Notes under the pieces: model-generated
Databases searched by the model: none
What the model saw: the letters and a program-made list of their open reading frames with translations, nothing else
What the model was told of the DNA's origin: nothing
Virus record (IMG/VR): IMGVR_UViG_3300015263_000944
Location: 171,395 to 235,394 of that record
Strand: one strand, 5' to 3'
DNA from: a virus
Length of the DNA stretch: 64,000 nt
Made by a program: the position numbers and the translations under genes
In this document: positions 1,891-60,325 of the stretch, one piece after another
How positions within the stretch are numbered: position 1 is the stretch's first letter
How the letters are laid out: every line of letters begins with the position of its first letter

Positions 1891-2346
1891 ATGATGAGGT
1901 TTAAGGAATTCGTACAAAACATGTCCGCCGAAGACATGGATGAGGAAAAGAGGGACATACAACAAACCCTCGGAAAACTTCCTCCATCCCATGCCAATTT
2001 GGTCAAAGGATTCAAGTGGAAGTTCCAGAGCGGTAACACGCTTCATGGGGACGACGAGCATGTTGGCTACATGGACGATCAGTCCAAAGAAATCGCCGTG
2101 GCCGCACCATGGAATTACGGTCGAGAATTTACCGTTCTGCACGAAGTTGCCCATCGTGTCTGGGAACTGCTTCCCCGACCACTGAAGCAACAGTGGGCAA
2201 ATGTCGTAGCCCACACTGAGAAAAAGCAGAATCAGAGTCCAGAAGAGTTGTTCTGTATGGCATACGCTAACCATTATGCCAAGAACAAGATTGTGATCCA
2301 CGATCACCCACAATGGCACGAGTTTATCAAGAATCTACCGCAATGA
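1891..2346 (+). CDS. Hypothetical HExxH protein with CTS-like N-terminus (MMRFKEFVQN); start placed at internal Met
   Basis: ORF 1789-2346; internal start MMRFKEF matches the N-terminal motif family; HEVAHRVWE zinc-peptidase-like motif. ATGA overlap with next gene. Confidence 0.45.
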   Translation: MMRFKEFVQNMSAEDMDEEKRDIQQTLGKLPPSHANLVKGFKWKFQSGNTLHGDDEHVGYMDDQSKEIAVAAPWNYGREFTVLHEVAHRVWELLPRPLKQQWANVVAHTEKKQNQSPEELFCMAYANHYAKNKIVIHDHPQWHEFIKNLPQ

Positions 2347-3041
2347 CGTTTAGAGATTGGCTACAACTAGATGAAGCAAGAATGAAGGGGTTCAAGAGGC
2401 ACTTTCTTAAGATGCACCCCCATGTGCCAAAGTATGTCGCCCATCAGATGTACACAAATCGACTCGGGCCAGAGCTAGACCGATCCATCAGAACCTATGG
2501 AAGCGTTGCGCCAACAGTCCTTCAGATACCAGAGCCAGTTGACCTACAAGCAACCACTATCGATCATCGTCCCGCTGGCAGCCCTCGGCCTTCGCCAAGC
2601 GAACTTCTGAGAGACAGGGATTTCTTGAAAGACATTGTTTGGGAGAAACGCCCGAGAACAATAGAAGTCGGCCCGCTCGATTTCGATCAAGGCACCCTTG
2701 GCCTGTTCCTCCAATGGAGATTCGGATTTGCGCCCAAAAATCAACTGGTCAGAAACGACACGAACCGATTCGCTGTACAAAGAAAGAAACTGATCGACCA
2801 AATCGCCGGGGATAACGAGCCAATCATCATCGTCAAAGAAGGCAACAAATATCGCCTATTGGAAGGATATCACAGAACGATGATCTTCCTGCTCTGGCCC
2901 TATCAAGATGTGCCGGGCGCACCGCCAGATCAGATTGAAATCTTAGAAAAAGGTGGAGACCCCAACCTGCTCGACTTTGCCAAGTGGTTGAGAGTCCCCA
3001 TCAAAGCGTACATTGGAACTAAGTCTGGGCTTGCTGCATAA
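2343..3041 (+). CDS. ParB/Srx-like nuclease-domain protein with CTS-like N-terminus (MTFRDWLQLDE)
   Basis: Start ATG overlaps upstream stop (ATGA). KYRLLEGYHRT resembles the ParB N-terminal DGHHR motif. Confidence 0.45.
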   Translation: MTFRDWLQLDEARMKGFKRHFLKMHPHVPKYVAHQMYTNRLGPELDRSIRTYGSVAPTVLQIPEPVDLQATTIDHRPAGSPRPSPSELLRDRDFLKDIVWEKRPRTIEVGPLDFDQGTLGLFLQWRFGFAPKNQLVRNDTNRFAVQRKKLIDQIAGDNEPIIIVKEGNKYRLLEGYHRTMIFLLWPYQDVPGAPPDQIEILEKGGDPNLLDFAKWLRVPIKAYIGTKSGLAA

Positions 3042-3753
3042 GCTTCGGCACTTTGCCCATCGCCTCTTCACTGATCTGTTCGTATTCACTGGGATCGCCA
3101 CTGAAGATCTTGTAGTGATGCACAATGGAGTTTCCTGTTGCTTGCGGCTTGTGGCCTTTGAATTGGGCACGCAGCGTCATGATGAACGCTCCTCCCACCA
3201 GTGGGAGTTCTTCCGGCCATGGCCCAATATCATCCCAGCACTTACGGCTGATGAGCATACACCATTCCTGAATGAACTGTACCTTTTGTTTCTGGATGTA
3301 GTATTCATTCAGTTGTACGCCCACAATGCCAGCCCCTTTAGAGATCGAGATGTTGATCAAGATGTCCAGCCATGCTGGATTCAGGACGGCGGTGTCACAG
3401 TGGAGGAAGACGAAGTAGCTGGAACGGGGATCGGCCATTGCCACGCCTTGATTGCAGGCGGCTGACCAATACTTGTTCTCCTTGTTGCGGACAACCTTGA
3501 TTCCTTCAGATTCCAAGACACTCAAATAGTCCTTGGTCTCAGGATCATCAGATGCGTTGTCAACGACAATGACTTCGTAGTTGGCTAAATGACTACAGAC
3601 GTGAATCGACTGCAAGCAGATGTTGAGATATTCTGGCTTGTTGTGATGAACGACGATGATCGAGACTTGTTCGTCACGGCCATCCTCCAAATCGATTCGA
3701 AGATCAGGAACTCCTGATGGAGATTCAAGCGGGTTATGCGGTTGGTCTGTCAT
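3019..3753 (-). CDS. Glycosyltransferase family 2
   Basis: VSIIVVHHNKPEYL (GT-A N-terminal motif), VIVVDNASDD, HCD; about 240 aa, typical GT2. Confidence 0.7.
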   Translation of the reverse strand: MTDQPHNPLESPSGVPDLRIDLEDGRDEQVSIIVVHHNKPEYLNICLQSIHVCSHLANYEVIVVDNASDDPETKDYLSVLESEGIKVVRNKENKYWSAACNQGVAMADPRSSYFVFLHCDTAVLNPAWLDILINISISKGAGIVGVQLNEYYIQKQKVQFIQEWCMLISRKCWDDIGPWPEELPLVGGAFIMTLRAQFKGHKPQATGNSIVHHYKIFSGDPSEYEQISEEAMGKVPKLMQQAQT

Positions 3754-3814
3754 ACTATTCCCTCCTTGTGCATATTACAGTAAGGAGGATACATATTCTT
3801 AAAGAGGTAATCAC

Positions 3815-3979
3815 ATGGAAGACACACAACTCCAAGCACAGGGCCTATTCGATGCTTTCAGGCTCCTTGACAAAGAATTGGTAGACAAGGTTCTAGCAAT
3901 CGCCAAAACCCTGAAGATCGAAGAACTCGATGGTGGGATCACCAGAATTACGATTGAACTGGTGAATCAGAAGAAGTGA
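3815..3979 (+). CDS. Small hypothetical protein (54 aa)
   Basis: ATG preceded by AAGAGG RBS; below the ORF-track length cutoff; translated by hand as MEDTQLQAQGLFDAFRLLDKELVDK... Confidence 0.3.
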   Translation: MEDTQLQAQGLFDAFRLLDKELVDKVLAIAKTLKIEELDGGITRITIELVNQKK

Positions 3980-5172: not shown

Positions 5173-5600
5173 ATGGGCAAATTCAAAGAATTCCTACTCA
5201 CTGAAGAAATTGGCCTCGGCGATCTCGGCCAGCGAATTGACAGTCTCATGAACAGTCAAAAGTTCGGCAACCAGATCGGCGGTGCATTTGCATCGACTGA
5301 CGTAACTGGCTCCGAGATGGGACCGACCATGGGTTTTGCTGGTCACTCCCTGTGGCTGCCATCGACCGACTTGACCGTTCCATCTGTGGAACGAACAGGG
5401 CGCATCACCACTCTGCTGTTGAAGCGTAACCCGATCTATGTCAGGCTCTCCGATGGCACAGAAGCGAACTTTTCCTACGAGGAATATCGCCGCATCGAAG
5501 GCAGCCCTGCATTGGGAAAGACAATGACCCTCATCTTCCAGCGACATCCAGAGGATCAGACCTCTGGATACTCGAAGATCGACAAAGCCATTGTGCGTGA

Positions 5601-5604
<4 letters not shown>
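5173..5604 (+). CDS. Hypothetical protein with CTS-like N-terminus (MGKFKEFLLTEE)
   Basis: N-terminal motif family member; CATAAATA element 15 bp upstream. Confidence 0.5.
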
Positions 5605-7788
<2,184 letters not shown>

Positions 7789-17560: not shown

Positions 17561-18208
17561 TCACTCAAAAATTGCAAGCAGAACTTGTGCCTCAAAGAGT
17601 TCCGCCTCGTCTTCAACAATTGAAGGCTTGGGTTCTCTAAGAACAGCACAGGCTACGGTCGCCCGGAAAAATTTGGTGAAATTCTGTCGGGAATGTCGGA
17701 ACTCATGGGCCAAGATGCTTGCAATGCGACCATTATTCTCGCAGTACAGGATCTTGTTGATTGTTAAGTCTTTGTCCATGTAGTTGTACTTGGCGTAGCA
17801 ACCACTGTACTCGACTTCCCAGATGAGGTGTCCGCTGGCATGGCGATCTCGGACCCAGTGTGCTGCCTCGGGGCAGACCTGATCCAAAATTTGCAACGGC
17901 TCTTGAAGGGCATCCCAAGCCTTGTCTTCATCCCACTTCAACACCAGATGTGTGTGAGGCGACTTGAATGCCAGTTGGCGTTCGGGGCTGAATCGCCCTA
18001 GCGTGCCAATCTGTGGTACATCATCACCAACGGTGATGTCATAAAGCGTCGTGATGCCGAGGGCAAAGATGATTGCGAGTCCCGTAATCAGCGAGTATTT
18101 CGCTGTGGCAACTACGACTTCTTTTCCGATTTCTCTGAGTCTTTTGAAGACTCCTTTTCTGTTTCTTTCTCCTGTCTCTCTTGAGCTATTTTCCTGAGAC
18201 GCTGCCAT
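17561..18208 (-). CDS. Membrane-anchored putative HExxH metallopeptidase
   Basis: TM helix YSLITGLAIIFALGITTLY; ILAHEFRHSRQ motif. Confidence 0.5.
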   Translation of the reverse strand: MAASQENSSRETGERNRKGVFKRLREIGKEVVVATAKYSLITGLAIIFALGITTLYDITVGDDVPQIGTLGRFSPERQLAFKSPHTHLVLKWDEDKAWDALQEPLQILDQVCPEAAHWVRDRHASGHLIWEVEYSGCYAKYNYMDKDLTINKILYCENNGRIASILAHEFRHSRQNFTKFFRATVACAVLREPKPSIVEDEAELFEAQVLLAIFE

Positions 18209-18474
18209 GCGTCCTCCGTTTCTTTATTCTTTGTTACGTCTGTCTCCTTTTCGTCGTCAGACGAGGGCTGGTCCTCAACCTTCTTCTGTTTGGCTTCTTC
18301 ATCGTCAAGATCCTTTTCTTTACGCTTGGCATCGCCAACCATTGAACCGATACTACCGCCGAGATCCTGAGCCATCTTGACCCAGCGATCCAAAGAATAA
18401 TCTGGGGCCTGATCCTCACTCAAGCGAGGACCAAATATCTCCCTCTGTTTCTTCCACTTCTGAAAAGACCCCAT
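18112..18474 (-). CDS. Highly charged K/E/D/S-rich low-complexity protein
   Basis: ORF track; composition only. Confidence 0.35.
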   Translation of the reverse strand: MGSFQKWKKQREIFGPRLSEDQAPDYSLDRWVKMAQDLGGSIGSMVGDAKRKEKDLDDEEAKQKKVEDQPSSDDEKETDVTKNKETEDAWQRLRKIAQERQEKETEKESSKDSEKSEKKS

Positions 18475-23181: not shown

Positions 23182-24369
23182 TCATGTCAACATCTCATAA
23201 TGTTCAGATTGCAATTGCTTCGTGAACTCCTCATCTTTGACCATACCGACAATCTCGCCATAGTTGCCAGCCTGCATTTCTTCTACAGCCTGCCGAACGA
23301 GATTGAGAGCGGTGTCATTGTCGTTTAAGACGCTACGGTAATGGGCGAGGACGACCTTCTTAGGACCGAAGGTAGCGAGTTCCAACCGTTTGCCCTCTTG
23401 GGCTCCCATGATTCCAGAGTAGGAAACATAAATTTGCTCGGGGCTCTCAAACAACAGGAAGGGAACCCCCATCATGCCTGCTAACCTAGTAGAAGCGGTC
23501 CAGAATTGGACGGTGAATTCAAGGTTGCAGATGATCGCCAAGGTTTTCTCAAGGTCTCTCGACTCTGGCATCTGAGAAAAGTCCAATACATCCTCCACAG
23601 GACATGGCAGGACGTTCTGTTTTTCTCCCAACCAGACAATGTTGTACCCCATTTCTTTAAGAATACCGATGAGTCTTACATAGAACTCTGGCTGAAGATT
23701 TCTGCCGTAGGTTTTGCGGCCTCGGGCAAAGATGCCCACGCTTTTCGGCCTCATCAACCCCTTCGCCCATTCCAATTTTTGGACTGACGGCCTTGGAATC
23801 GCCCTTGCCATCTTACGATTGTGTTCGATATCAGTGAAGATTGACCTGACCAGCATCGTGCTGTGACAATGAGGACAATCTTCATACGCTCTTCGCCATT
23901 CATGCCAGAACTTGCCACAGGTTCGGCAGAAATTGCAGACGGCGTATTTGCCCAGTGCCGCTGAGGGAATTACGTCCCCGTACTTCGTGGCCGCTCGCTC
24001 CAGTCGTTCCAAATTGTTCGAGATGTGGTGGAAAGCCCGAGCATGATCTCGGAGCCACATATACTCCTCCTTCATTTCCCAGAACTCATCAACCAGATGG
24101 CGGTAGATGTACTCTCGGCCATGCCAGCCCATTACGATAACGTAAGCTCCCGGAAACCGTCTCAACAGACGGGGGATACAATACATCGCCCCTAGCGTCT
24201 CACAACCGAATTCTGAGAAGCACGCAATGATCTTGATGCGATCCTTCTTCTTCGGTCTGGGACGATGGTTAAGCTTGTGGACAGTGAAAGAAATCTCATC
24301 GAGCGTCTGCTCTGAGATCTTGGATACAAAGGCATCCTTGTCCTTCGTCTTGAAGTAGGCCAACGCCAT
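23182..24369 (-). CDS. GT9 (heptosyltransferase)-like paralog 2 with inserted CxxC...CxxC zinc ribbon
   Basis: FWTASTRLAGMMGVPFLLFES motif; CNFCRTCG...CPHCHS insertion. Confidence 0.5.
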   Translation of the reverse strand: MALAYFKTKDKDAFVSKISEQTLDEISFTVHKLNHRPRPKKKDRIKIIACFSEFGCETLGAMYCIPRLLRRFPGAYVIVMGWHGREYIYRHLVDEFWEMKEEYMWLRDHARAFHHISNNLERLERAATKYGDVIPSAALGKYAVCNFCRTCGKFWHEWRRAYEDCPHCHSTMLVRSIFTDIEHNRKMARAIPRPSVQKLEWAKGLMRPKSVGIFARGRKTYGRNLQPEFYVRLIGILKEMGYNIVWLGEKQNVLPCPVEDVLDFSQMPESRDLEKTLAIICNLEFTVQFWTASTRLAGMMGVPFLLFESPEQIYVSYSGIMGAQEGKRLELATFGPKKVVLAHYRSVLNDNDTALNLVRQAVEEMQAGNYGEIVGMVKDEEFTKQLQSEHYEMLT

Positions 24370-38365: not shown

Positions 38366-39112
38366 ATGGGACTATTCCAAGAATACATGGATGCCAAAGG
38401 ACAGGTGAAGAAGCCTGTCGTTGACATTCATGGAGGCAAACCGACGCCAGCAACACCGCCGACCAAACCGCCCAAAGAACACGGAAACGCTCCGTACATC
38501 GCCAAAGGCGAAAAAGGCGGAAAGAAAGGGTTCGGCGATCTCGGCGACACAAAGTGTAAGTGTGATGGCAAGGAACCCGCTCCAGCCAAGATTCCAACAG
38601 CCGAACATGCCGAAATTGCAGCGTTGGTTACAGACGTGATGCTGAAAGATGGTGCTCTGGTCGAACAACTGGTCTACCAGTTGAAGAACAAGGGCCTACT
38701 GGGCGTTGTGGTCGCAGAGATGTTGACCTACAAGGAGACGTACCAGCATCTCACAGAAATCATGGCTCACGAATCATATGGTCCCAAGGTTTGCGGCAAG
38801 CTCATTCGTGCCATGAACGAAGAAGTTGCCCCACCACTCAGTGCCAGCCTTGAAGGCGAAGACATTGAGGATGACGCAGACGAAGCCGAGGAAGGCGATG
38901 AATTCGACAATGAATTCTCGGGCGACATGGAAGGCATCGATGATGAAGACATTGACATGCAAGACGCCGACTTCGAGATGGACCCAGCCCAAGCGGCTGA
39001 TCCCTTGATGATGGACCCGACCATGCAACAACAAGCTCCGGGCCAAGCTCCAATGGCCCCGCCACACGGTCAAGCAATGATGCACCTTCAACGTGCAATG
39101 ATGAGACGCTAA
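38366..39112 (+). CDS. Acidic hypothetical protein with CTS-like N-terminus variant (MGLFQEYMDAK) and D/E-rich C-terminal half
   Basis: GGAG RBS; N-terminus resembles T4 MKTYQEFIAE; Lys/Pro-rich then D/E-rich low complexity. Confidence 0.5.
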   Translation: MGLFQEYMDAKGQVKKPVVDIHGGKPTPATPPTKPPKEHGNAPYIAKGEKGGKKGFGDLGDTKCKCDGKEPAPAKIPTAEHAEIAALVTDVMLKDGALVEQLVYQLKNKGLLGVVVAEMLTYKETYQHLTEIMAHESYGPKVCGKLIRAMNEEVAPPLSASLEGEDIEDDADEAEEGDEFDNEFSGDMEGIDDEDIDMQDADFEMDPAQAADPLMMDPTMQQQAPGQAPMAPPHGQAMMHLQRAMMRR

Positions 39113-39333
39113 TGAATTTCAAACAATGGTTCGAAGAGACTGAAGCAGAAGAACATGCAAAGCGTAAGATGCTTGGCGCAAAGCGTTATGCTGCCAATAG
39201 TCGTTCGGATCATCTGGGACGCCCCAAAGGTGCGACTGTGGGAGGGAACCCACGGTACAGGGGAGGCAAAGGTTGGTGGACCAACGTAGGCCCAACCAGA
39301 ACACAGGACAAACGAGATGAACGAGAAGAGTGA
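39112..39333 (+). CDS. Small basic protein with CTS-like N-terminus (MNFKQWFEETE)
   Basis: TAATG start/stop overlap with upstream gene; family motif. Confidence 0.5.
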   Translation: MNFKQWFEETEAEEHAKRKMLGAKRYAANSRSDHLGRPKGATVGGNPRYRGGKGWWTNVGPTRTQDKRDEREE

Positions 39334-39544
39334 CGCACGCCCAGCCACAAAAGATCTTCTCGACAGTATTCGTGGCGTCTTCAAACACTATAGCAAATCA
39401 GCGAGAAGAAAATCGTGGGACGCCCTGATGTCACCGGGTGGCAAGTCCGTCGTCAACAAGTTGATCACCGACCCGAGGGCACCAGTTGTTGGCATCCCAC
39501 GATTGCTCCGTTTCAAAGAATGGATCGAATCACTCGATCAGTGA
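39317..39544 (+). CDS. Hypothetical protein; C-terminus contains the family motif (LLRFKEWIESLDQ)
   Basis: ORF track. Confidence 0.4.
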   Translation: MNEKSDARPATKDLLDSIRGVFKHYSKSARRKSWDALMSPGGKSVVNKLITDPRAPVVGIPRLLRFKEWIESLDQ

Positions 39545-43922: not shown

Positions 43923-44396
43923 ATGAACTTCAAGACTTGGATTGAGAACGAAGCCAGTTTAGGCTCTGGAACCCCAGAAATGGGTGCGATGCCCATGGTT
44001 AATAGGGGGAGCGAAACCCCTGCGTCCGATGCGGTTAAGCAAACTGGCCTCCAACCGCAAGTTGATGCCAAAGAGCTTAAGACAAAATCTCATAAAGAAC
44101 AAGATGCAATGCTCGCCATTGACTCAGAAATCGAGCACATGGACATGCAAATCCCTGCCGGGGACGATTCTGAGACTCCCAAACTGAACCAGTTCAAACA
44201 GCTTTGGGACGCTCTGAAAACAGCTTGGGAAGACATCAAGATGAGCGACAATACGCCCGGCGCAGAAGAGGGTGGTCTCGGCACCAACATGGGCGACCCG
44301 AAGTATCTGGCGATGATGCAGCAGCACCCGAATATGGTCCCCGCAAGCGGCCAAGGTCAGGGACCACATGGTCCGGGCACTTTCGGTCAGCAGTGA
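43923..44396 (+). CDS. Hypothetical protein with CTS-like N-terminus (MNFKTWIENE)
   Basis: Family motif; rest is low-complexity, Gly/Pro/Gln-rich. Confidence 0.5.
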   Translation: MNFKTWIENEASLGSGTPEMGAMPMVNRGSETPASDAVKQTGLQPQVDAKELKTKSHKEQDAMLAIDSEIEHMDMQIPAGDDSETPKLNQFKQLWDALKTAWEDIKMSDNTPGAEEGGLGTNMGDPKYLAMMQQHPNMVPASGQGQGPHGPGTFGQQ

Positions 44397-44724: not shown

Positions 44725-45045
44725 TTAGTCTCCCATGATCAGCGATCCGAGATCATCGTCGATGCCAGCAGGCTTGACGTATCCGGTCGCTTCGAGTTTC
44801 TTTTGTGTTCGATAGGCATTCCGAAGACTCATACAACAATCTTCGGCACGATCCCATCCTGCCGTCTTCCAGACATCTTTGAGTGGGCCGACGTTCTGCC
44901 AGCCCTTCTCTGTGAGGTATTCAGCCATCACTTTCTCTTCGGCCTGACGAGCCTCTCGCTTCTTTTCCTTTTGCTTCTCTCGACGGCGGGTCTTAGAAGC
45001 AGGTTCGTTGGCTCGCTTGGCACGTTGCTTTTTGGTTAGTGTCAT
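44725..45045 (-). CDS. Basic hypothetical protein
   Basis: ORF track; K/R-rich N-terminus. Confidence 0.4.
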   Translation of the reverse strand: MTLTKKQRAKRANEPASKTRRREKQKEKKREARQAEEKVMAEYLTEKGWQNVGPLKDVWKTAGWDRAEDCCMSLRNAYRTQKKLEATGYVKPAGIDDDLGSLIMGD

Positions 45046-46643
45046 TTCAGGAAATCCTTCTCATATTGTTCTCTGGACATGATGTGGACATCACTATCCA
45101 TGTTCGGACCATCGCAGACCAAGACGTATTCTTCCCCGTCAAGGTTCTGAGATCCCAGAACAACCACATTCTGCCAGATCATGTGAATTGAAGTGAGAAC
45201 CTCTGTGGCGTACTTGTGGTACAGCGGTCGTCCATCAGCGTAGTGCTGCATGAAGAACCAGCCTTTGCCCAAGTGGTTCGGGTCGGTCAACCTGATGTCA
45301 GGCAAACCGCCATTACAGTAGCGTTGGAGCATCTGTTTCTTGACTTCCTTGAAATCACGAGACGTGATCTTCCACTCGCCCGTTGACATGCGGCGGTAGG
45401 TGTAATACTGCATCTTCTCGGCGAACTCTGGAGTGAAGAATTCGTTGATCAAGGTGTAGTCGTTGTAATACTTCCTGACTTCGAAGACCTTCTCCATGCC
45501 GAGCCCAAGTTTCTTATCCCACTTGGCCTTCTCCCGCATGTTGGTGCATTCTTCCCATTCCTTGCCGAACTTGCCCTTGTTCCATCGATCTTCGATGTCC
45601 AAGAGAAGCTCGAAGCCCAGCTTGTATGGGTTCTGACTCCACTGACCTCCCAAGACTCGCATCTTGTGTTCGGCATAGTGCCAGATACCAGCCGCTTCAT
45701 CGTCCTGTCCGAGTGAGGCAAGGCCCTCCCGACAGAGTAGGTGGTAATCGACGAAACTGGCCCAACCTTCATTGATCATCTTCGTTTGTCGCTGAGGTTG
45801 GAAGTACATGGACTCATCATAGAGCATCGAGATGATGTCTTGCTGCCACGGCTTGAGTGGAGCATTATTCTTCAAGAATCCCATGATGTCTCGATCAGCA
45901 CGACCGAACAGGCCAAGGAATTCCGAAGCTTCTTTCTTCTCAATTCTCTCGTGTTCCTTCTCGATGTACGAGTCGGGGTTGACCCATTCGTCCATGTAGT
46001 CATGAGTGGATTTCAAACGTCTGGGAAAATGGTATTTTCTTTCATCCCTGACATTCTTGTTTTCAATCTTCTTTCGCTTCCATGCCTTCTGAGGATCAAT
46101 GAGCGTTTCGATTCGCATCACATGGTCGATGAACTCTGTGACACGCTCGCCGCCCCAACGCTTCATGTACTGACGAATTCGAGTGCTGTGATTCGCCAGC
46201 TTGTTCATCATGTTTTCGTCAGTCGGCCCAAAGAAAATGTTGTTCTTGAAGAAGTCGTTGTGGCCGATGGCGTGACAGATAACGTCCACGTTGTCTACCA
46301 ACGTGTTCGAGTCCATGCAGTAGATGTAACATGGATTGGTGTTGATCACCATTTCCGAGATACGGTACTGGTTGTATTCGTAACCACGACTCATTTCCTC
46401 ATATTCCATTCCCCACTTCCAGTGTGGGTATCGGACAGGGAAACCGCCGTAGCTGGCAAGCTCAGCCATTTCGTCGTAGCGGACAAATTCAACGATGATG
46501 GGATAGTAGTCCAACCCCATATCCCTGCAAGCCTTCTCCATCTGAGGAAGCAGTTCCTCCACTTCCTTGTGGATCTTCAGACCGGGAATGTTGTTGTCAC
46601 CAACCAGAATTGGTGTCCCGCTCATCATGTTAGATTTTGACAT
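45042..46643 (-). CDS. SpoVR-family protein
   Basis: Full-length similarity pattern to SpoVR/YcgB (about 530 aa; HWKWGMEYEEMSRGYEYNQYRI, CHAIGHNDFFKNN). Confidence 0.85.
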   Translation of the reverse strand: MSKSNMMSGTPILVGDNNIPGLKIHKEVEELLPQMEKACRDMGLDYYPIIVEFVRYDEMAELASYGGFPVRYPHWKWGMEYEEMSRGYEYNQYRISEMVINTNPCYIYCMDSNTLVDNVDVICHAIGHNDFFKNNIFFGPTDENMMNKLANHSTRIRQYMKRWGGERVTEFIDHVMRIETLIDPQKAWKRKKIENKNVRDERKYHFPRRLKSTHDYMDEWVNPDSYIEKEHERIEKKEASEFLGLFGRADRDIMGFLKNNAPLKPWQQDIISMLYDESMYFQPQRQTKMINEGWASFVDYHLLCREGLASLGQDDEAAGIWHYAEHKMRVLGGQWSQNPYKLGFELLLDIEDRWNKGKFGKEWEECTNMREKAKWDKKLGLGMEKVFEVRKYYNDYTLINEFFTPEFAEKMQYYTYRRMSTGEWKITSRDFKEVKKQMLQRYCNGGLPDIRLTDPNHLGKGWFFMQHYADGRPLYHKYATEVLTSIHMIWQNVVVLGSQNLDGEEYVLVCDGPNMDSDVHIMSREQYEKDFLK

Positions 46644-47638
46644 TACTCGGTTCTCCTCCAGATATCATCCACATCATACGAGATATCTGTAATTAACTCA
46701 AGCTCTTCCCGCACTCTTCTTATAGGTTCCGACCAATCTCCTTCGGTCGATTGCCAGAAGAGTTTAACCGTGTCGTACCACATGGTTGTTTTAGAACGAT
46801 CCCACAAAGGATTATCGTCGGATTTCATCAATCCAAAAGTTGGTTTGTTCATGGTGCCTGCCAAATGAAGGACAGATGAGTCTGTCGCAATGACCGCATC
46901 CATGGCGTCGATCAAAATTGCCACGTCGTTGAAATCGTATGTTGATGGCATCAACATTGATTCGGTGTTGGGCAAGGTGTAAATGTTCCATCCCGATTCT
47001 TTAAGGACGGCCATTTGTTCCTCGGGGATTTGTTTGACGTGCAAACCACAAGCGGGCCGATTGGGCTGTATTGCCGCCTCGCCGTGAGGCAGAATCTCTG
47101 GCTGCCAAGGAACTTTGGTCTTCAGAATGACCGATCTGTCGGCGGGATAGTAGTGATCCAACTTGAGGCCACTCAACAGAGCCGGGATGCACATGATGTT
47201 GGTGTGGTAATCGCAAAGGACATGCTGATTGGTGAACTCATCCACGAACCAAACATCTTCCATCAATTTCTTTAAGGCTTCGTAGGCCGAGTAGCAATTC
47301 AGCACGATGCGACATTCCCATTCCCGCTTCAAAGCGGCGAGATATCTAAAGAAATTGATGGTGTTGCCGATGTTGAAGTCCGTGAACACTTCAATGGACG
47401 ATCCACGCAGGGACTCCCCCCGCCAGTTGCGGCCAAAGTGTTTGGAAAGGTCTGGACGTGATGCGCCCAGTGTGTCTGAAACAATCAGGCTGTAGAGTTC
47501 GCCGATGAGTTCGTGACTGGGATCTAATTTGCGGATAACTTCCAACAACTTGACGGCTTTATCGGGCAAGCCGATCCAGTAGTAGTTGTTGACAGTCGCC
47601 AGACCTTGATCAAGATACTGTTTGGAGTCCCGTGCCAT
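46643..47638 (-). CDS. GT9 (heptosyltransferase)-like paralog 3
   Basis: VIATDSSVLHLAGTMNKPTFGLMKSDDNP resembles the heptosyltransferase C-terminal motif. Confidence 0.5.
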   Translation of the reverse strand: MARDSKQYLDQGLATVNNYYWIGLPDKAVKLLEVIRKLDPSHELIGELYSLIVSDTLGASRPDLSKHFGRNWRGESLRGSSIEVFTDFNIGNTINFFRYLAALKREWECRIVLNCYSAYEALKKLMEDVWFVDEFTNQHVLCDYHTNIMCIPALLSGLKLDHYYPADRSVILKTKVPWQPEILPHGEAAIQPNRPACGLHVKQIPEEQMAVLKESGWNIYTLPNTESMLMPSTYDFNDVAILIDAMDAVIATDSSVLHLAGTMNKPTFGLMKSDDNPLWDRSKTTMWYDTVKLFWQSTEGDWSEPIRRVREELELITDISYDVDDIWRRTE

Positions 47639-48473
47639 GAATGCTGTCCCTCAACTCTCGAATTTCCTGATGCGTCGGATCGTCGCTTTCATCGAGATTG
47701 ACAAGGAACTCGTCGGACACTTCTGGCCTTCCGCCCTTGGGATAGCAGAAAATGTTCAACGAATTGCCTGCATTCAAGACATCCACCTTGTGATACTTGA
47801 AGTTGTCTGGATTGTAGACAGGAGTTTCATGCAACTCCCAGTCATAACCCACATGCTCCACGAATCTCAAAATGTCTTCCCTGTTGTCGGCAAAGTTCAC
47901 ATACAACAGAGGGGTGGACCTATCGATGGTGCGACGGCAACCATTCAGTACAGAAAGCTCCATGCCCTGCACTGACACCTTAATCAACTTGGGCTTCGCC
48001 AAGTTGACATCATCGATGGCAATTGATGCTACCGGATTATCACATTTACGTCCATCTCGGTCCTTGGCATTCAACAATGTCGCCAAGCTGATTTGTGATA
48101 GATCGACTTCACCATTGATGTCAACCGATGGGAAGTAACAGACGCCTTTGCTGGAATCTGTCACCGAACGGTTGAATGCTTGGATGTTGGTGATCTGGTT
48201 GAGAGCGATGTTGCCGCACAACATGAAGTACAGGAACGTGTGAGCCTCAATTGCCAAGACGTAACCCTCTGAGGTAACGTGCTTCGCCAAAGGAATCGTG
48301 ATCGATCCAATGTTGGCCCCAACATCAACGACCACATCACCCTTGTCAGTCAGCTTCTTCAAGAATTCTACCTTGAAAGAATTGACTTCTCCGTAGGTGT
48401 CCAGAGAACGACCTACCAATTGATCGTTCTCTAAGAACATCATGTCTCCATACTTCGTGCTGCTGACTTTCAT
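47610..48473 (-). CDS. FkbM-family methyltransferase
   Basis: VVVDVGANIGSITIPLAK motif typical of FkbM MTases. Confidence 0.65.
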   Translation of the reverse strand: MKVSSTKYGDMMFLENDQLVGRSLDTYGEVNSFKVEFLKKLTDKGDVVVDVGANIGSITIPLAKHVTSEGYVLAIEAHTFLYFMLCGNIALNQITNIQAFNRSVTDSSKGVCYFPSVDINGEVDLSQISLATLLNAKDRDGRKCDNPVASIAIDDVNLAKPKLIKVSVQGMELSVLNGCRRTIDRSTPLLYVNFADNREDILRFVEHVGYDWELHETPVYNPDNFKYHKVDVLNAGNSLNIFCYPKGGRPEVSDEFLVNLDESDDPTHQEIRELRDSIHGTGLQTVS

Positions 48474-49714
48474 GCTGCTGCCTCTCTCTTATCGTTTTCT
48501 TTGCCCAAGATCTTACGGATGGCTTCGATGATCTGCTCGTTGCGATCTTCTTCGCTGAGATTGGGGGCATAACCCCAGTTCCCGAATCCGAAGTTCCCAT
48601 CATCGTTATCCGATTCATCGGGGCCGACATTGGCCGTCTCGATATAAGAAGAGTCCAACTTTCCGCCTTTTAGGGCGTTGTCGAGGTGTTGTTTCACACT
48701 ATCTTCGTATCTCCAAGAACAAACCTGCGTCATGCCCAACAGATTAACCTTGCTGGGACCGAGTTCTTCTTTGATGATCTTGATCATCCGGCTGTTGTCG
48801 TCGCCCCAGTTGTCACCATCTGAGAAGTAGAAGATGTAGACGTTGTACTTCTCTGGCGGATATCTGTTTTCCAACTGATCCGCAATGGCCCGGAACGCCG
48901 ACGAACACATTGTTCCACCACCATAACGATAGGTGTAGAACGCCTCTTCGTTGACTTCCTGTGCTCTGGTGTCGTGGACAAAGTAGCAACGATCCACCTT
49001 GTCATAGAATTTTCTGATCCAGCAGTCGATCCACCAACTCATGTCGCTGACAATATCGCAGCGATAGTCGTCCATCGACGCCGAGCAGTCTCGGGCGAAG
49101 AAGATGACAGCATTCGAGGAAGGAATCTTGATCTGTTTGTACTGTCGATATCTGAAGTCGTTGTTGATGGGCGTCAGCAATCGAACTGGCACCTTGCAGC
49201 CCGGCACCCACTGGAGGTTCTCCAGTTCGCCGGTCATCGACAATCGCTTCAGTGCTTCCTTCATCGTTCGACGAGGATGGCGCAACGCTTGCAAACCGAC
49301 CCGAGAGATATCGTTGTACTTGATCTTGATCTCTTCGTAGGTTTCATTGGGCTTGGGCCTCATGCGAGGCAACTTCAGTTCGTCCTGCATGAACCGCAGA
49401 ACGTCATCCATATCGATAGTGATCTGGATGCCTTCACCGGGATCTTCCCCAGCTTTGTTGCCACCCTTGCCCGGTTGTGGGTCTCGCCCAACAACGTCGC
49501 CTTCTTTTCCCGGCCCACGACCGACACCTTCCCCGTTGCTTCCAAACACGAAGCGAGGAATCTCGATCTGCGGGATAGAGATCGTCATCTTGCCGCCCTT
49601 GGGCCGCTGACGAACGATGGACCCCGACTTGATCAGTCTTTTCAATTCACGTCGGGTGCGTCCAGAGATCACATCTCTGAACTTCTTATGATCTTCTTGG
49701 ATTCTCTTTGGCAT
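48470..49714 (-). CDS. YeaH/YhbH-like DUF444 (vWA-fold) protein
   Basis: Gly-rich N-region GPGKEGDVVGRDPQPGKGGNK, then vWA-like FFARDCSASMDD; length and order match DUF444. Confidence 0.8.
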   Translation of the reverse strand: MPKRIQEDHKKFRDVISGRTRRELKRLIKSGSIVRQRPKGGKMTISIPQIEIPRFVFGSNGEGVGRGPGKEGDVVGRDPQPGKGGNKAGEDPGEGIQITIDMDDVLRFMQDELKLPRMRPKPNETYEEIKIKYNDISRVGLQALRHPRRTMKEALKRLSMTGELENLQWVPGCKVPVRLLTPINNDFRYRQYKQIKIPSSNAVIFFARDCSASMDDYRCDIVSDMSWWIDCWIRKFYDKVDRCYFVHDTRAQEVNEEAFYTYRYGGGTMCSSAFRAIADQLENRYPPEKYNVYIFYFSDGDNWGDDNSRMIKIIKEELGPSKVNLLGMTQVCSWRYEDSVKQHLDNALKGGKLDSSYIETANVGPDESDNDDGNFGFGNWGYAPNLSEEDRNEQIIEAIRKILGKENDKREAAA

Positions 49715-49794
49715 GATGCTCCCCTTGTGTAAGAAAAGAGGGCGATAGCGGTAGAGTAACGATCAACCACCACTACCGCCCCCAACGTCCGTCA

Positions 49795-51879
49795 TTACTC
49801 GGAGACATCGCCTCTGGCAAAGATGCTGCTCACATAATCGAGCACATCAGTAGCCGACTGCTGGTTGTATCCGCACTGCTTAATCAATCGAGTCTTGATG
49901 GCATCGATCTTTTCTTGCAGATCGGGGTCCAACTCGGCAGCTTCTTTTGTCAAAGCCGACAACTTGATCGTGTCTTTGACATCTTCAAAGACCTTGGCTT
50001 CAAGAGCCCGCTTCAACTCAGGATTGCTGTCCCAGCGGAACTTTTTGTCCCGAGAAGCCAGCGTGCCGATAAAGGCGGCGAGCGAACGTCGGAAGTCGTC
50101 ACAACCCTGTTCGGGGATGCCGTTCTTCTCTTCAATGCTACGCATCAGTCGCTCGTCGGGGTCCATGAGGTTGCCCGTAATCGGGTTCTCCATCTTCTCG
50201 TCATTGACGTAGGCGATCACGTTGTCAACGTATTTGTTGCACAGTCGTTCAATGGCCTTCTCATCGGCGACGAGAGCACGTTGGACCTCGTTTTTCAGGA
50301 TTTCGTCGAGTTCCTTGATTGCCAATTCGACACAGAACTCATACTTCTTCCTGTCCTCCACCTTGGTAATCAGCGACGAGTGACCCAAACCTTCCTTGAT
50401 TTCGCTGAGCACATGGAACACGTTCACATAATGCTTGCGGCGAGCCAATTGGTTCGAGATCTTGTCCTGCACATATCGTGCAGACACGCCACCGATCATA
50501 CCTTCATCTGGGAACTTGTCCCGAAGCTCCTTCACGGTATCTTCGGTCCAGCCCGGAAGCTGACGGCCATCATAAAGTTTGGCCTTGTCCCGCAGATCGA
50601 GTTTCCCCTCACCGTCATCGTGTAAACGAGTCAGAATGGCGAAGAAAGCAGCGATCTCCAAAGTATGTGGCATGATGTGTTGCTTGACTTTTCCGGGACC
50701 ATACAGGTGTTCCAGAATCTTCTGCTCATCCGACCAGCGAAGCAGGTACGGCACATCCACCTTGACGGTTCGGTCACGAAGAGCTTCCATGAACTGGTTG
50801 TTCTTGAGCTTTTCGTACTCGGGGTTGTTCGTGTGAGCAATGATCAACTCATCGATCACAATCTGAGGGAACTTCTTCGGCTTGATCTGGTGCTCTTGAG
50901 ACGCTCCCAGAAGATCGTAGAGAAATGCGTTGTCGAGCTTCAACATTTCGATGAATTCACAGATGCCTCGGTTGGCAACTTGGAATTCGCCGTCGAAGTC
51001 GAAAGCACGAGGATCTGAGTCGGCCCCGAAGTGGCCGATCTTGCGATAGTTCATATCGCCGGTGAGTTCCGTGCTGTCCTGATTCTTCTCGTCCTTGGGC
51101 TGGAATGTTCCGATGCCCACACGATCCGTTTCAGAGTGACATCTGCGGACCACCACGATGTGGTTGTCGATGACCTTCTGCCAATCCCCATCATAGGTCT
51201 TGAGCAGGTGGTTCAAGAACAGCTTGCAGCGGGGATTGATCTCTCCCTCACAGATCAGCTTGTAGAGACTGTCCTTGTCGTCATCACTCGCCATGTCTGT
51301 GAACGTGGCGTTGAGATCCTTCAAGAACTCCTGCCGCATGGGAATCGGCATCAGCTTCAAAGGATTTTCGTTGAGAGCCGCATCGCAGGTGTCATTCAGG
51401 TAGATCGCATTCTGCCCTTCGAAGGGAAGATTGACCCACTTGTAAGTGTACCATGCACCAGCATTGGTGCGGCTGTAGCGTTCCAGACCTCTCTTCAAGA
51501 GGCGGCAGATGGTGGATTTCGACGAACCCACCGGACCATGCAGCAAGAGCACACGCTTCTCGGTTCCATAAGAACCGGCTGCACCGTGAATGAAATCGAC
51601 AAGACCCTGAAGAGTCTTCTCTTCCAATCCGAAGATCGGAAGGGTGTCGTCGTCGAAGAAGTGGTATCTGGTGTGTGTCTTTCGATAACGCTCGAAAGTG
51701 CTGGTGCCCTTTTCCATGATCATGTCATAGACATATTGGAAAGCGTTACGGGCCAGCGTTGGCCGCTTCATGACCAAGTTCAGGTAGTCGCCATACGACA
51801 TTTCTTCGTTCAAGGCGAGAAACTGTTCTCGATCATAAAGTTCAGCGTACTTGCTTAAGAAAGTAGTTGTGTTCTCCAT
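49795..51879 (-). CDS. prkA: PrkA-family serine protein kinase (AAA-like N-domain)
   Basis: 694 aa; N-terminal MENTTTFLSKY...; P-loop LLLHGPVGSSKST; overall PrkA/YeaG architecture. Confidence 0.9.
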   Translation of the reverse strand: MENTTTFLSKYAELYDREQFLALNEEMSYGDYLNLVMKRPTLARNAFQYVYDMIMEKGTSTFERYRKTHTRYHFFDDDTLPIFGLEEKTLQGLVDFIHGAAGSYGTEKRVLLLHGPVGSSKSTICRLLKRGLERYSRTNAGAWYTYKWVNLPFEGQNAIYLNDTCDAALNENPLKLMPIPMRQEFLKDLNATFTDMASDDDKDSLYKLICEGEINPRCKLFLNHLLKTYDGDWQKVIDNHIVVVRRCHSETDRVGIGTFQPKDEKNQDSTELTGDMNYRKIGHFGADSDPRAFDFDGEFQVANRGICEFIEMLKLDNAFLYDLLGASQEHQIKPKKFPQIVIDELIIAHTNNPEYEKLKNNQFMEALRDRTVKVDVPYLLRWSDEQKILEHLYGPGKVKQHIMPHTLEIAAFFAILTRLHDDGEGKLDLRDKAKLYDGRQLPGWTEDTVKELRDKFPDEGMIGGVSARYVQDKISNQLARRKHYVNVFHVLSEIKEGLGHSSLITKVEDRKKYEFCVELAIKELDEILKNEVQRALVADEKAIERLCNKYVDNVIAYVNDEKMENPITGNLMDPDERLMRSIEEKNGIPEQGCDDFRRSLAAFIGTLASRDKKFRWDSNPELKRALEAKVFEDVKDTIKLSALTKEAAELDPDLQEKIDAIKTRLIKQCGYNQQSATDVLDYVSSIFARGDVSE

Positions 51880-51986: not shown

Positions 51987-52244
51987 TTAAGAAATCGACT
52001 TCAAAACAGAAGGCACAGTCATTGGTCTGTTGGGTCCGAGGCCCGGACCAGCAGGACGTGCGGGCTTCGTTGCTTTTGGCCCAGCTTTCATCATGTTTCT
52101 GATGGCATCGCCTCGACCCATACCAAATGGTGGTTTCACATCTTTGATCATCAGCTTGAAGATGTTCTTTTCGCCACCAGCTTTTCCGACTGGGCCGTAG
52201 AGACCATGAAGTTCTTCGTTCTGTAAGAATTCCTTAAACCTCAT
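51987..52244 (-). CDS. Small protein with CTS-like N-terminus (MRFKEFLQNEE)
   Basis: Family motif; ATGA overlap with upstream gene. Confidence 0.5.
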   Translation of the reverse strand: MRFKEFLQNEELHGLYGPVGKAGGEKNIFKLMIKDVKPPFGMGRGDAIRNMMKAGPKATKPARPAGPGLGPNRPMTVPSVLKSIS

Positions 52245-52612
52245 GACTTTTTCATCCTCTTCAACATCATCTTCTTCATGCCGAACATCTTCGGTTTCGG
52301 AATCTTCAAACCTTGAATGGGGGAATCGAGAGACATCTTGAAAGCGACGTTGCCAGCATTGGTCGCACCACCAATCTTCGGCGGAACAATCTTATCCATG
52401 CCCCAGCCCACATCCTTCAAGAATGTTTTGTTCAATGAAGATGGGTTCCCAGAAAGATCCATCCAGTTTGTTTGACGGTCGGAGAACTTGGGTGACTGTT
52501 GAAGAAATTGCGAAGACTTCTCCGTCGCCTGACTCGTTTGAGTGGCTTGATTATCACGGGTTCCGTCAGAACCCACTTCGATCTCATTGTACAGCCATGC
52601 CTTAAATCTCAT
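52241..52612 (-). CDS. Hypothetical protein with CTS-like N-terminus (MRFKAWLYNE); start placed at internal Met
   Basis: ORF 52241-52675; motif-bearing Met at 52612. Confidence 0.45.
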   Translation of the reverse strand: MRFKAWLYNEIEVGSDGTRDNQATQTSQATEKSSQFLQQSPKFSDRQTNWMDLSGNPSSLNKTFLKDVGWGMDKIVPPKIGGATNAGNVAFKMSLDSPIQGLKIPKPKMFGMKKMMLKRMKKS

Positions 52613-58485: not shown

Positions 58486-58487
58486 AA

Positions 58488-58850
58488 ATGCCAATCTACG
58501 AATTCGAATGTAATGAATGTCATGAAAAGTTTGACGACTTGGTAACTATGAGCAAAGCTGAAACGTGCCCAGACACCAAGTGTCCAAAATGCGAATCCAA
58601 AAATTGGACTAAGCTTGTAAGCTGCCCCAATTTCATGTTCACCAACCCGGTAGGCACTGACCGGTGGAACAGCAGTTCCTCCGGTCATGACTATCGCTTC
58701 AAACACAACATCCCAAAGGTGAAGGCCGAGCGTGAGATGGCCGAGCAACTGTCGCACATGGGTTCGAATCCCTATGGTGATACCTCGGACAAAGACATCC
58801 AGATGGACACCGGAATTCACGACGCCGACTCAAGGCCGGGCCTAAGCTGA
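58488..58850 (+). CDS. FmdB-family zinc-ribbon protein
   Basis: MPIYEFECNECHEKFD...CPKCES (CxxC...CxxC, FmdB N-terminal signature). Confidence 0.55.
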   Translation: MPIYEFECNECHEKFDDLVTMSKAETCPDTKCPKCESKNWTKLVSCPNFMFTNPVGTDRWNSSSSGHDYRFKHNIPKVKAEREMAEQLSHMGSNPYGDTSDKDIQMDTGIHDADSRPGLS

Positions 58851-59261
58851 TGTGAGAGCCTGAAGCAAATCGTATTCCCGTCTGAACTGTGGGAATCGTG
58901 CGATATATGGCAAGATGTTTTCCCTGACCGTGGCTTCCATGTTCAGGACATAAGGATCGTCAGTTGAATTGTCGTTGCTCAGCACGTCGATCAACTGACC
59001 CAGCCATTGTCGAACCATTGGCTCTTGAGCATTCCCGCTGACAATTTTCTGAGCGATTGAATCGATGTTCGCCAAGACGTTTTCCTGCACCTGCGGCTGC
59101 TTCTTGGGCTGCTTCTCTTTCTTGGGAGGATCTTCCTCAAACATCGTAGAAACCATGGGAGGCCACATGCGTCTCCACATGGGGATGGAAATCCGCCTGA
59201 ACCCAGCGATGTCGCCGGTCGAGGTTCCAACTTCCTTCAACAACCATTCTTTGAATCCCAT
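58842..59261 (-). CDS. Hypothetical protein with CTS-like N-terminus (MGFKEWLLKE)
   Basis: GGGAGGAA RBS; family motif. Confidence 0.5.
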   Translation of the reverse strand: MGFKEWLLKEVGTSTGDIAGFRRISIPMWRRMWPPMVSTMFEEDPPKKEKQPKKQPQVQENVLANIDSIAQKIVSGNAQEPMVRQWLGQLIDVLSNDNSTDDPYVLNMEATVRENILPYIARFPQFRREYDLLQALTSA

Positions 59262-59827
59262 TACATTCCTCCCATCGGTGGCCCGCCCATCGGTGGTGCG
59301 CCTCCCATTGGAGGACCACCCATCGGTGGCCCGCCCATACCCATACCGCCGCCGCCACCAGCAAGTGGCTCAACCCATGCGTCCATCAACTGTTCCAAGT
59401 TCATTTGCTCTGTTTGATCTTCGACAGGGCCATCCCAGTAAAGCGGGTTCTGGTCACTGCTGTATCTGTGAATGAACAGTTTAGGGTTATCTTGGTACAT
59501 CATTGCCAACGGAAACGTCACTTCGTAGGTCTCATCCCCTCGATCTTTGATCGAAACATTGATGTTTCCAGCAACTCTGAAAGGCCAACCAAAATCAGGA
59601 ATCTTCGGGCCATAGAGCATCACGCTGTCAGATTCCAATGCAGCAGAAAAATCTTCGTCTCGAATCCCAAACTCACGACCAAGCACTTCAGGATGGTGCT
59701 TATTAGTCGTTTTGTTTTGAGGATCAGACGGTGGTGCGGCATCAGCACCCATTGGTGGTGCTGCTTCATCTTCTCTCAACTTGCAGGAGAAGGAATGCTC
59801 TCTGATGAATTCACGAAATCTGGTCAT
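59261..59827 (-). CDS. Hypothetical protein with CTS-like N-terminus (MTRFREFIRE) and C-terminal (PPMGG)n Gly/Pro/Met repeat
   Basis: ORF 59261-59854, motif at internal Met; C-terminus GGGGGMGMGGPPMGGPPMGGAPPMGGPPMGGM. Confidence 0.5.
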   Translation of the reverse strand: MTRFREFIREHSFSCKLREDEAAPPMGADAAPPSDPQNKTTNKHHPEVLGREFGIRDEDFSAALESDSVMLYGPKIPDFGWPFRVAGNINVSIKDRGDETYEVTFPLAMMYQDNPKLFIHRYSSDQNPLYWDGPVEDQTEQMNLEQLMDAWVEPLAGGGGGMGMGGPPMGGPPMGGAPPMGGPPMGGM

Positions 59828-59872
59828 GTCAAAGGTATATATTAAGGCAGACACAGTTTGGCGAGGTGATAA

Positions 59873-60325
59873 GTGGCAACTTTTAAGACATGGCTATTTG
59901 AGGAAGAAGAGTTAGATGGGAAGATCAACTCCCTTCTCGACTCGGAAGGCTTCATCTTGTTCTTCAAGAAAGACGATGATTTCTTTGGTGTATCAGAGGA
60001 CGGGCGAATTGTTTTCGCCAAGATGAAAAACCCCGAGGATGAAGATCTGCCGTCTGGATGGGAAGATGAAGCCAGCTTTTCTGCCCAGAATCTCACCAAG
60101 AAAATGAAGGGGGAACCCGCCACTCACCTCTTCAAGAAGGAAGACCTGAACTCGATCAAAGTCATGGATCGGGAGAAAATGTTCGCAGAACTGAAGAAGA
60201 TCGCCGAAGGTCTCGGGGACGAAGCGTTCAAGAAAGACCCCGGATTCAGGGTCATCGACATCGCCAGCTTGTTCCAACGTGAGCCTGATGAGGCTCCCAA
60301 TTTTGTCAGGGCAGACGAGGAGTAA
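59873..60325 (+). CDS. Acidic hypothetical protein with CTS-like N-terminus (MATFKTWLFEEEE)
   Basis: Family motif. Confidence 0.5.
   Translation: MATFKTWLFEEEELDGKINSLLDSEGFILFFKKDDDFFGVSEDGRIVFAKMKNPEDEDLPSGWEDEASFSAQNLTKKMKGEPATHLFKKEDLNSIKVMDREKMFAELKKIAEGLGDEAFKKDPGFRVIDIASLFQREPDEAPNFVRADEE

Follow-up and report, generated by a model that had tools for sequence, protein, structure and literature searches.

Candidate capsid targeting peptide resembling that of phage T4 at the N-termini of many unrelated proteins in a clade of huge phages

Tagged genes and their shared N-terminal peptide

The 64-kb stretch analyzed here (the window; positions 171,395 to 235,394 of IMG/VR virus record IMGVR_UViG_3300015263_000944) was a replication/metabolism region of a huge phage, and 11 of its genes encoded proteins of 73 to 248 aa that began with a common short peptide (the tag) followed by bodies of different kinds (Table 1). 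These 11 N-termini had been listed in an initial annotation made without database searches, and all of them translated as quoted there, with coordinates and strands exact; the three adjacent copies at 58842-60325 were likewise found in place, and the protein at 38366 (MGLFQEYM) was rightly set apart as a variant, its F-Q-E-Y-M resembling Y-Q-E-F-I of T4. A gene caller of the simple codon-usage type gave ~95 genes in the window (92% coding, 19,775 aa); it recovered all 11 tagged genes, with an upstream alternative start chosen for four, and the JGI gene calls agreed with the tag-first starts in three tagged genes (151, 232, and 143 aa).

The core F-[KR]-x-[WF]-[LIVF] was matched 11 times in the called proteins versus 1.6 times expected from composition; 10 of these 11 matches lay 1-3 residues behind the start codon, and the eleventh lay at the extreme C-end of the open reading frame (ORF) 39317-39544. 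A six-frame scan of the window gave 11 start-anchored matches versus 0.2 in codon-block shuffles. The tag is real and far beyond chance; a motif frequency no higher than expected, named beforehand as a refuting outcome, was not what was found in the window. Tagged genes made up at least 11-12 of the ~95 genes (~12%, roughly one in eight). The bodies were mutually dissimilar, as initially described: similarity in all-against-all blastp was confined to the first ~10 residues, and scans of the tagged proteins against Pfam, PHROG, and NCBIfam gave no match. In total, 136 non-redundant tagged ORFs fell into 90 body clusters.

The consensus over 129 instances from relatives was M-x-F-[K>R]-E-[W>F>Y]-[L>V,I]-[Q/E]-x-x-E, again at the extreme N-terminus. 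All copies had an aromatic pair (F at position 3 or 4 and W, F, or Y three residues on), directly followed by [LIVMF]; the aromatic positions were fixed by the search pattern itself, but independent orthologue alignments of the family of 2343..3041 (the 2343 family) had F3 and W6 at >=90%. At positions left free by the pattern, Glu occupied 47% at +2 and 47% at +8, with small residues (G, S, A, T) next; Glu was common from +5 to +9, and a hydrophobic-x-Glu site occurred within the next few residues in 69% of the 129 instances.

The window corresponded to positions 52,817-116,816 of a JGI metagenome contig of 120,310 bp (3300022562, Ga0247387_10000633), and one additional full copy (L134 18124-, MTFKEFLQIAE) was located on this contig just left of the window, within 10 kb. 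The isolated tag-like peptide at 39506..39544 is possibly the stump of a lost or deleted cargo gene. In the window and in the relatives L001-L006 (see below), the (GGPPMGG)n repeat at the C-end of 59261..59827 (59261-59330) always ran directly up to the start codon of the tagged family that follows (MxFKEW...VGTSTxxIAxF), and its last codons supplied the Shine-Dalgarno (SD) sequence (GGAGG) of that family.

Table 1. Tagged genes and other features of the window (box, TA[ATG]ATA-type box described in the text; lengths in aa)
Position	Strand	Feature	N-terminus	Length	Remarks
1891..2346	+	tagged gene	MMRFKEFVQN	151	two adjacent ATGs (MMRFKEF); predicted zincin-like body; clade core gene
2343..3041	+	tagged gene	MTFRDWLQLDE, then ARMKGF	232	overlaps 1891..2346 by 4 nt
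5173..5604	+	tagged gene	MGKFKEFLLTEE	143	no SD; ATAAATAG box 11 nt before ATG
38366..39112	+	tagged gene, variant tag	MGLFQEYMDAK	248	acidic; low-complexity Q/P/M tail
39112..39333	+	tagged gene	MNFKQWFEETE	73	basic; size and charge like T4 internal proteins
43923..44396	+	tagged gene	MNFKTWIENEASLG	157	orthologues in L001-L006 keep tag (MKFRNWMEAE, MSFKTWIEDQE)
51987..52244	-	tagged gene	MRFKEFLQNEE	85	basic; second gene of pair upstream of PrkA; orthologues syntenic in L001, L003-L006 (MTFKEFLQLDE)
52241..52612	-	tagged gene	MRFKAWLYNE	123	no SD; CATAGATAAT box 3 nt before ATG
58842..59261	-	tagged gene	MGFKEWLLKEVGTSTGDIAGF	139	orthologues including MKFKEWMQIQEVGTST
59261..59827	-	tagged gene	MTRFREFIRE	188	C-terminal (GGPPMGG)n repeat; TAATATATAC box 8 nt before ATG
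59873..60325	+	tagged gene	MATFKTWLFEEEE	150	GTG start; acidic; orthologues MRFKNWIILEN, MKFKKWMITEN
18112..18474	-	possible degenerate variant	MGSFQKWKKQ	120	outside the count of 11; aromatic pair (i, i+3) kept; no hydrophobic residue at +4
39506..39544	+	isolated tag-like peptide	(L)LRFKEWIESLDQ-stop, also given as LLRFKEWIESLDQ-stop		very C-end of ORF 39317-39544; TTG two codons upstream
5957..7114		DnaJ
23182..24369	-	ORF		395	strong coding signal
24734..26809	-	ORF		691	strong coding signal
29388..32270	-	DnaE, second part			rest of DnaE (NTPase, finger, HhH)
35150..35532	-	tmRNA			Rfam RF00023, 88.5 bits, full model; ARAGORN tag peptide VETSTPLRMAA
41024..42433	-	DnaE, first part			PHP domain plus start of NTPase domain
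45042..51879	-	PrkA/DUF444/SpoVR trio			glycosyltransferase and methyltransferase inserted

Conservation of the tag in relatives

The only close GenBank relative was the complete 595-kb uncultured phage LR756511.1 (PrkA 62% and DnaE 42% identical), and megablast of 20 kb of the window against GenBank phages gave no match; a search of IMG/VR for an exact 38-mer was also negative. IMG/VR contained 18 PrkA relatives (50-79% identity, contigs up to 459 kb), among whose loci L001-L006 were the closest. These 18 PrkA loci (350 kb) contained 50 start-anchored tags, and orthologous families kept the tag as their bodies diverged: MRFKEFLQNEE/MTFKEFLQLDE/MKFKEFIQLE, MNFKTWIENE/MSFKTWIEDQE, and MTRFREFIRE/MQRFREFVRS. 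A DNA pattern for M-x-F-K-E-W-L-Q was found at 21 IMG/VR loci, and 17 of the matches coincided with an ORF start; the contigs reached 527 kb in length and had 26-51% G+C. As judged from these sequences, the tag is a conserved feature across a large clade of huge phages.

The density of start-anchored strict matches per 100 kb was 17 in the window, ~14 in the PrkA loci (50 in 350 kb; densest in L001-L006), 3.7 in LR756511.1, ~1 in T4, and 0.2-0.4 in shuffled sequence, which indicated a marked expansion of the tag in the sublineage of the window. A 100-kb portion of another huge phage, LR745206.1, had three strict matches, two of them with doubtful TTG starts, and was uninformative as a negative control. 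In LR756511.1, a 183-aa protein at 544812-545360 (-) (L052) had the tag core (KGFKEWLEENHKED) internally, at residue 44, behind a small SKKQ...GGFGGK N-terminal domain, and no start codon stood ahead of the core (AAA, GTT).

Match to the T4 capsid targeting sequence

In the T4 genome, ipII and ipIII start with MKTYQEFIAE, and ipI starts with MKTFKEFTST. The strict pattern derived from the window matched T4 gp61.1 (MKTFKEFIKE), and a looser pattern gave eight matches in 103 kb of T4, with ipI, ipII, and ipIII among them. T4 N-termini resembling the capsid targeting sequence (CTS) outside ipI-III were those of gp61.1 (L135 18966-19130 -, 54 aa, hypothetical) and 57B (L136 11953-12411 -, MMEFKDF). 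According to amber suppression in T4 IPIII, targeting depends mainly on CTS residues 4 and 7 and processing on residues 8 and 10, and the substitution E10D blocks cleavage and leaves targeting intact (PMC9026906). The T4 CTS alone loads a foreign protein into the head (Mullaney & Black 1996, as cited in PMC9026906).

The targeting positions coincided with the aromatic pair of the tag; the processing positions would correspond to its next hydrophobic residue and downstream Glu, with a spacing different from that of T4 and a hydrophobic P3 in only some of the copies. The closeness to the T4 CTS proposed in the initial annotation was upheld by IPI (MKTFKEF), by gp61.1, by this placement on mapped determinants, and by conservation in the clade. 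The tag and the T4 CTS (IPI, IPII, and IPIII; the propeptides of Alt and gp24; cleavage by gp21) had the following in common: (i) ~10 residues at the extreme N-terminus, (ii) aromatics three apart (Y4/F7, or F4/F7 in IPI), with a hydrophobic residue and, at a different spacing, a Glu behind them, and (iii) attachment to small basic or acidic proteins that otherwise have nothing in common and whose genes lie away from the structural module. They differed as follows: (i) the tag read M-x-F-K-E-W-L-Q-x-x-E, with Trp preferred at the second aromatic position, Glu 1-2 residues farther on, and a variable linker to the body, (ii) the repertoire amounted to at least 11 in 64 kb of the window and 22 in the 595-kb LR756511.1 but a handful in T4, and (iii) the replicase was of DnaE type (Pol III alpha) here but gp43 in T4.

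T4-type head module in relatives

When an ORF set of LR756511.1 was searched with T4 proteins, phmmer gave homologues of gp20 (3e-34), gp21 (3.5e-23), and gp23 (9e-36), and Pfam and PHROGs gave Portal_T4 (2.6e-73), Peptidase_S77 (PF03420; 96 bits versus a cutoff of 27), and a T4-type large terminase (TerL). The protease gene was separated from that of the major capsid protein (MCP) by one for an acidic, scaffold-like protein of 310 aa. The module (523506-533587 in LR756511.1) had the order portal, 616-aa protein, S77 protease, scaffold-like protein, and MCP, and this order was kept in the seven IMG/VR loci examined. The window was linked to the module through two contigs that carried both the module and a PrkA 65-66% identical to that of the window (3300047160_036266 and 3300013121_000017); from these relatives, T4-type head genes are presumed to be present in the window's own genome.

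The MCP clade comprised 388 stretches in IMG/VR; the best 80 of 388 were taken, and these did not extend to the 458-kb contig of L016, the closest large relative of the window. Among the matches listed, its MCPs started with MNANAKFLNE, which had L-x-E at residues 8-10 like the T4 gp24 propeptide MAKINELLRE. Several relatives had, within the head module, a small ORF whose start, MKTF[KR][EQ]YV..E, was nearly that of T4 IPII/III. In LR756511.1, the MCP gene was immediately followed, in the same orientation, by genes for two tagged proteins: a 485-aa protein with a phosphoribosyltransferase (PRTase) domain (MDFKEWYFINE; GTG start after an AGGAGG SD) and a 1076-aa protein (MEFREWFRSAE). The portal of LR756511.1 at 531014-533587 (-) (L051 31014-33587) contained an intein-like insertion (Pfam Intein_splicing, residues 151-330, 3.7e-08).

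The initial annotation had placed a T4-CTS-like tag on many unrelated proteins in a non-T4 background. The tag itself was strengthened; the background held for replication (DnaE, not gp43) but had to be given up for head assembly, since the portal, S77 protease, MCP, and TerL of relatives are of T4 type and a scaffold-like protein accompanies them. The gp21-type prohead protease suggested as a search target was found in relatives (LR756511.1 and IMG/VR contigs) and not in the window.

Zincin-like and ParB-like tagged proteins

Database searches gave 314 homologues of the family of 1891..2346 (the 1891 family), encoded on contigs of up to 693 kb. Most of these homologues began with the tag, from which a linker of variable length led to a conserved M-[DGE]-E-E-K boundary. 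Within its HEVAH motif, H84, E85, and H88 were invariant in 57 homologues. The AlphaFold model of the 1891 protein had a predicted local distance difference test (pLDDT) score of 84 overall and 48 over residues 1-10; residues 1-14 were of low confidence and detached from the body, and AlphaFold models had a short helix over the tag. Fold matches were exclusively zincins (probability up to 0.98-1.0, but with weak E-values of 1e-3 to 0.2): anthrax lethal factor, IrrE, SprT, selecase, and the 'PolyVal' metallopeptidase domains of large polyvalent phage proteins. Sequence-level searches of the family gave no Pfam match and only noise in a PDB profile search. The body is predicted from the model to be a mini zincin-like metallopeptidase, and the invariant residues and exclusively zincin matches bore out its earlier description as an HExxH protein. 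Four homologues (P0028, P0050, P0069, and P0072) had an expanded Q/M/P-rich linker between tag and zincin with repeated [EQ]-F-M-Q, suggestive of a duplication of the tag's second half.

In the 2343 family, 14 orthologues kept M-x-F-K-x-W-[LIF]...[DE]-E-[AS]-R-x-K-G with an invariant E11; the motif LLEGYHRTM was conserved, with G175, H177, and R178 invariant (G-x-H-R). The 17 best fold matches were sulfiredoxin (Srx), ParB, Noc, and KorB, all weak (E = 0.04-1.3; model pLDDT 67), and searches of the family gave no Pfam match and only noise in a PDB profile search. The matches weakly suggest a ParB/Srx-fold domain in the C-terminal half; they are consistent with the ParB-like protein named in the initial annotation, which at this strength (best E = 0.04-0.3) could be retained only as a tentative assignment.

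Proposed function of the tag

We consider it probable that the tag is a T4-type capsid targeting and processing signal with a greatly enlarged cargo set, in a large clade of huge phages with T4-type heads. Docking, cleavage, virion residence, and injection of the tagged proteins are proposed by analogy with T4. A precursor would carry the N-terminal peptide of ~10-12 residues, M-x-F-[KR]-E-[WFY]-[LIVM]-Q/E-x-x-E, whose aromatics three apart would dock it on the scaffolding core of a prohead assembling on a gp20-type portal; once the gp23-type shell is closed, the gp21-type (S77) protease would cut behind a Glu located where the tag ends or a short distance past it, and the mature protein would stay in the head with the DNA and enter the host cell at infection. 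Besides a number of small proteins of basic, acidic, or low-complexity composition, the cargo would include the mini zincin metallopeptidase and the putative ParB/Srx-fold protein.

Several points weighed against this proposal: (i) a hydrophobic residue stood exactly at P3 of the +8 Glu in ~25-30% of copies, so that a strict L/I-x-E rule was not universal, (ii) the Glu of the tag lay 1-2 residues farther from the aromatic pair than that of T4, (iii) neither the 64-kb window nor its 10-kb flank contained a head module, (iv) tagged genes did not cluster around the MCP overall (24/546 kb in MCP loci versus 22/595 kb genome-wide in LR756511.1), (v) tag density differed ~five-fold between sublineages, (vi) no virion proteomics or N-terminal mapping data for this uncultivated lineage were found in the literature, and (vii) a cargo set of ~12% of local genes far exceeds anything documented to our knowledge.

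The same peptide could also be a short linear motif for some other partner, such as a phage or host chaperone, a protease/degron system, or an intracellular assembly, with no capsid loading at all. Such a partner would suit a tag that is short, detached from the folded body, and borne by unrelated proteins, whose genes are scattered among replication/metabolism genes with DnaJ in the same window; it would leave unexplained, however, the residue-level match to T4 targeting and processing, the conserved Glu boundary, the co-occurring T4-type S77 head module, and the tagged genes abutting the MCP. We judge it unlikely.

Under the capsid targeting proposal, a further claim can be made tentatively, on which we lean slightly to the doubtful side: in this sublineage about one gene in eight would be loaded by a T4-type tag, trimmed, and injected, giving an 'ejectome' of dozens of proteins. 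If true, this 'ejectome' would amount to unbundled polyvalent proteins (a zincin protease, a ParB-like protein, a PRTase, and small proteins) and would be far larger than in any studied phage. No prior description of the tag motif in huge phages was found in the literature; the 'moraphage' paper, considered as one, concerned a different lineage. The class of mechanism is known from T4; new here would be its occurrence in a huge-phage clade, with a modified consensus and a cargo set of this size.

Should the tag act as it does in T4, a sequence rule would tell which proteins of uncultivated huge phages (genomes of up to ~600-700 kb) are capsid-borne and host-delivered, and the injected proteome of hundreds of such phages could be read from sequence. 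A mechanism known only from T4-like coliphages and close relatives would then extend to at least 388 MCP-bearing IMG/VR stretches with a many-fold expansion of the cargo set; the injected proteins, most of them without a recognizable family, would act before phage gene expression and be prime candidates for anti-defence or host takeover, and the tag would offer a portable peptide of 10-12 residues for loading foreign proteins into very large capsids.

Peptide-level versus nucleotide-level conservation

Tag codons in the window were TTT and TTC for Phe, AAA and AAG for Lys, AGA, AGG, and CGT for Arg, and CTA, TTA, TTG, CTG, ATT, ATC, and GTA at the hydrophobic position. Over the 129 instances (26-56% G+C), TTC was used 68 times and TTT 61 times, AAA 63 times and AAG 35 times, together with six Arg codons; the hydrophobic position drew on every one of the six Leu codons as well as on codons for Ile, Val, Met, and Phe. 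Substitutions within the tag were conservative in amino acid (K/R, W/F/Y, L/I/V/M) and not in nucleotides. Because synonymous codons vary freely while the amino-acid class is kept, selection acts on the peptide and not on the nucleic acid.

These codons bear on the idea that the shared 5' ends merely reflect cassette recombination or a diverged paralogous family, the peptide having no targeting function. Tagged genes do stand in operon pairs and as three adjacent copies at 58842-60325, and in T4 the internal-protein loci vary between related phages with CTS-like N-termini kept (PMC9026906). The DNA of the tag, however, was not conserved, with all synonymous codons used across 26-56% G+C, so that no homology exists to drive recombination and only selection on the peptide maintains the tag; moreover, each orthologous family kept the tag over long divergence. 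Recombination or paralogy is compatible with a targeting function rather than exclusive of it, and as a substitute for such a function it appears quite improbable.

A TA[ATG]ATA-type box was found <=20 nt from the start codon in 4/11 tagged genes (1891, 5173, 52612, and 59827) versus 0/84 others (Fisher p = 1e-4), and none of the four had a convincing SD. In L001-L006, the same box stood 3-11 nt before the ATG of the first gene in tagged units; a TA[ATG]ATA / TACATAC box also occurred upstream of 28927- and 43923, and in LR756511.1 A/T boxes of a similar kind preceded structural genes by 20-35 nt, with an SD after the box. The absence of an SD was not significant as a class trait of tagged genes (5/11 versus 53/84, p = 0.33); only the box was specific to them. 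The box may mark a shared class of promoter, perhaps a late one, whose messages would be leaderless or nearly so, and it more likely reflects a shared timing of expression; a shared sigma70-like or late promoter upstream of the tagged genes was only suggestive. The promoter box at 43923 was rejected as the reverse complement of a promoter-like element of the divergent gene 43843-. That the tag is a by-product of such an mRNA or translation-initiation feature (leaderless or SD-less messages from the box) can claim these four boxed genes and their counterparts in relatives, but we give it hardly any credence, since third positions and whole codons vary (Lys AAA versus Arg CGT, Trp TGG versus Phe TTC, six Leu codons) with the amino-acid class kept, and 38366, 59261, 59873, and LR756511 520504 (operon-internal or with a normal SD) keep the peptide without the box. 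A shared translation-initiation or codon context had been offered by the initial annotation as part of what would refute it, and the box cannot explain the peptide conservation.

Comparison with other known systems

Polyvalent proteins are packaged in virions and injected, and zincin metallopeptidase, ParB-like, and PRTase domains are listed among their components (Iyer et al. 2017, PMC5512222); P1 DdrB combines ParB with a metallopeptidase, and its processed form is incorporated into the head (PMC5512222). The domains of the tagged cargo (zincin, weak ParB/Srx, and PRTase) belong to these same classes, which is circumstantial support for virion packaging. Polyvalent proteins such as those of P1 (Dar/DdrB) resembled the tagged set in these domain types and in a presumed delivery with the DNA that counters defence or jump-starts infection; they differed in being fused into one giant polypeptide that is later processed, whereas the cargo here consisted of separate small tagged proteins. 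The ParB plus metallopeptidase pair of DdrB was mirrored by the adjacent 1891-2346 and 2343-3041, here as two genes.

In the phiKZ-like giant phages SPN3US and 201phi2-1, the propeptides of ejection and inner-body proteins are thought to target the prohead (PMC5694885). These phages share with the proposed system a gp21-type protease and the loading of many different proteins into a large head for ejection, but their propeptides are mostly 80-130 residues long (one of ~20), family-specific, and cut at A/S/G-x-E, and no short motif is common to unrelated proteins. Encapsulin cargo-loading and microcompartment encapsulation peptides are likewise short, terminal, portable among cargo, and bound to the shell interior, and the encapsulin shell has the HK97 fold. 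The likeness is an analogy only: most of these peptides are either C-terminal (encapsulins) or amphipathic helices of ~18 residues, no maturation protease cleaves them off, and they have no part in delivery to another cell.

Other features of the window

No structural genes were present in the 64-kb window. Its other genes encoded a thiamine pyrophosphate (TPP) enzyme, a DHH phosphoesterase, an AAA ATPase, thymidylate synthase, and GlpX, in addition to the split DnaE, PrkA, DUF444, SpoVR, DnaJ, and tmRNA given in Table 1. The two ORFs of 691 and 395 aa could be assigned to no family, and a sub-threshold DUF4139 match was obtained for the former only. The PrkA/DUF444/SpoVR trio was arranged like bacterial yeaG-yeaH-ycgB; it was conserved in the clade and was used as the clade marker. 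DnaE (Pol III alpha) was split into two ORFs ~9 kb apart, with unrelated genes, tagged ones included, between the two halves.

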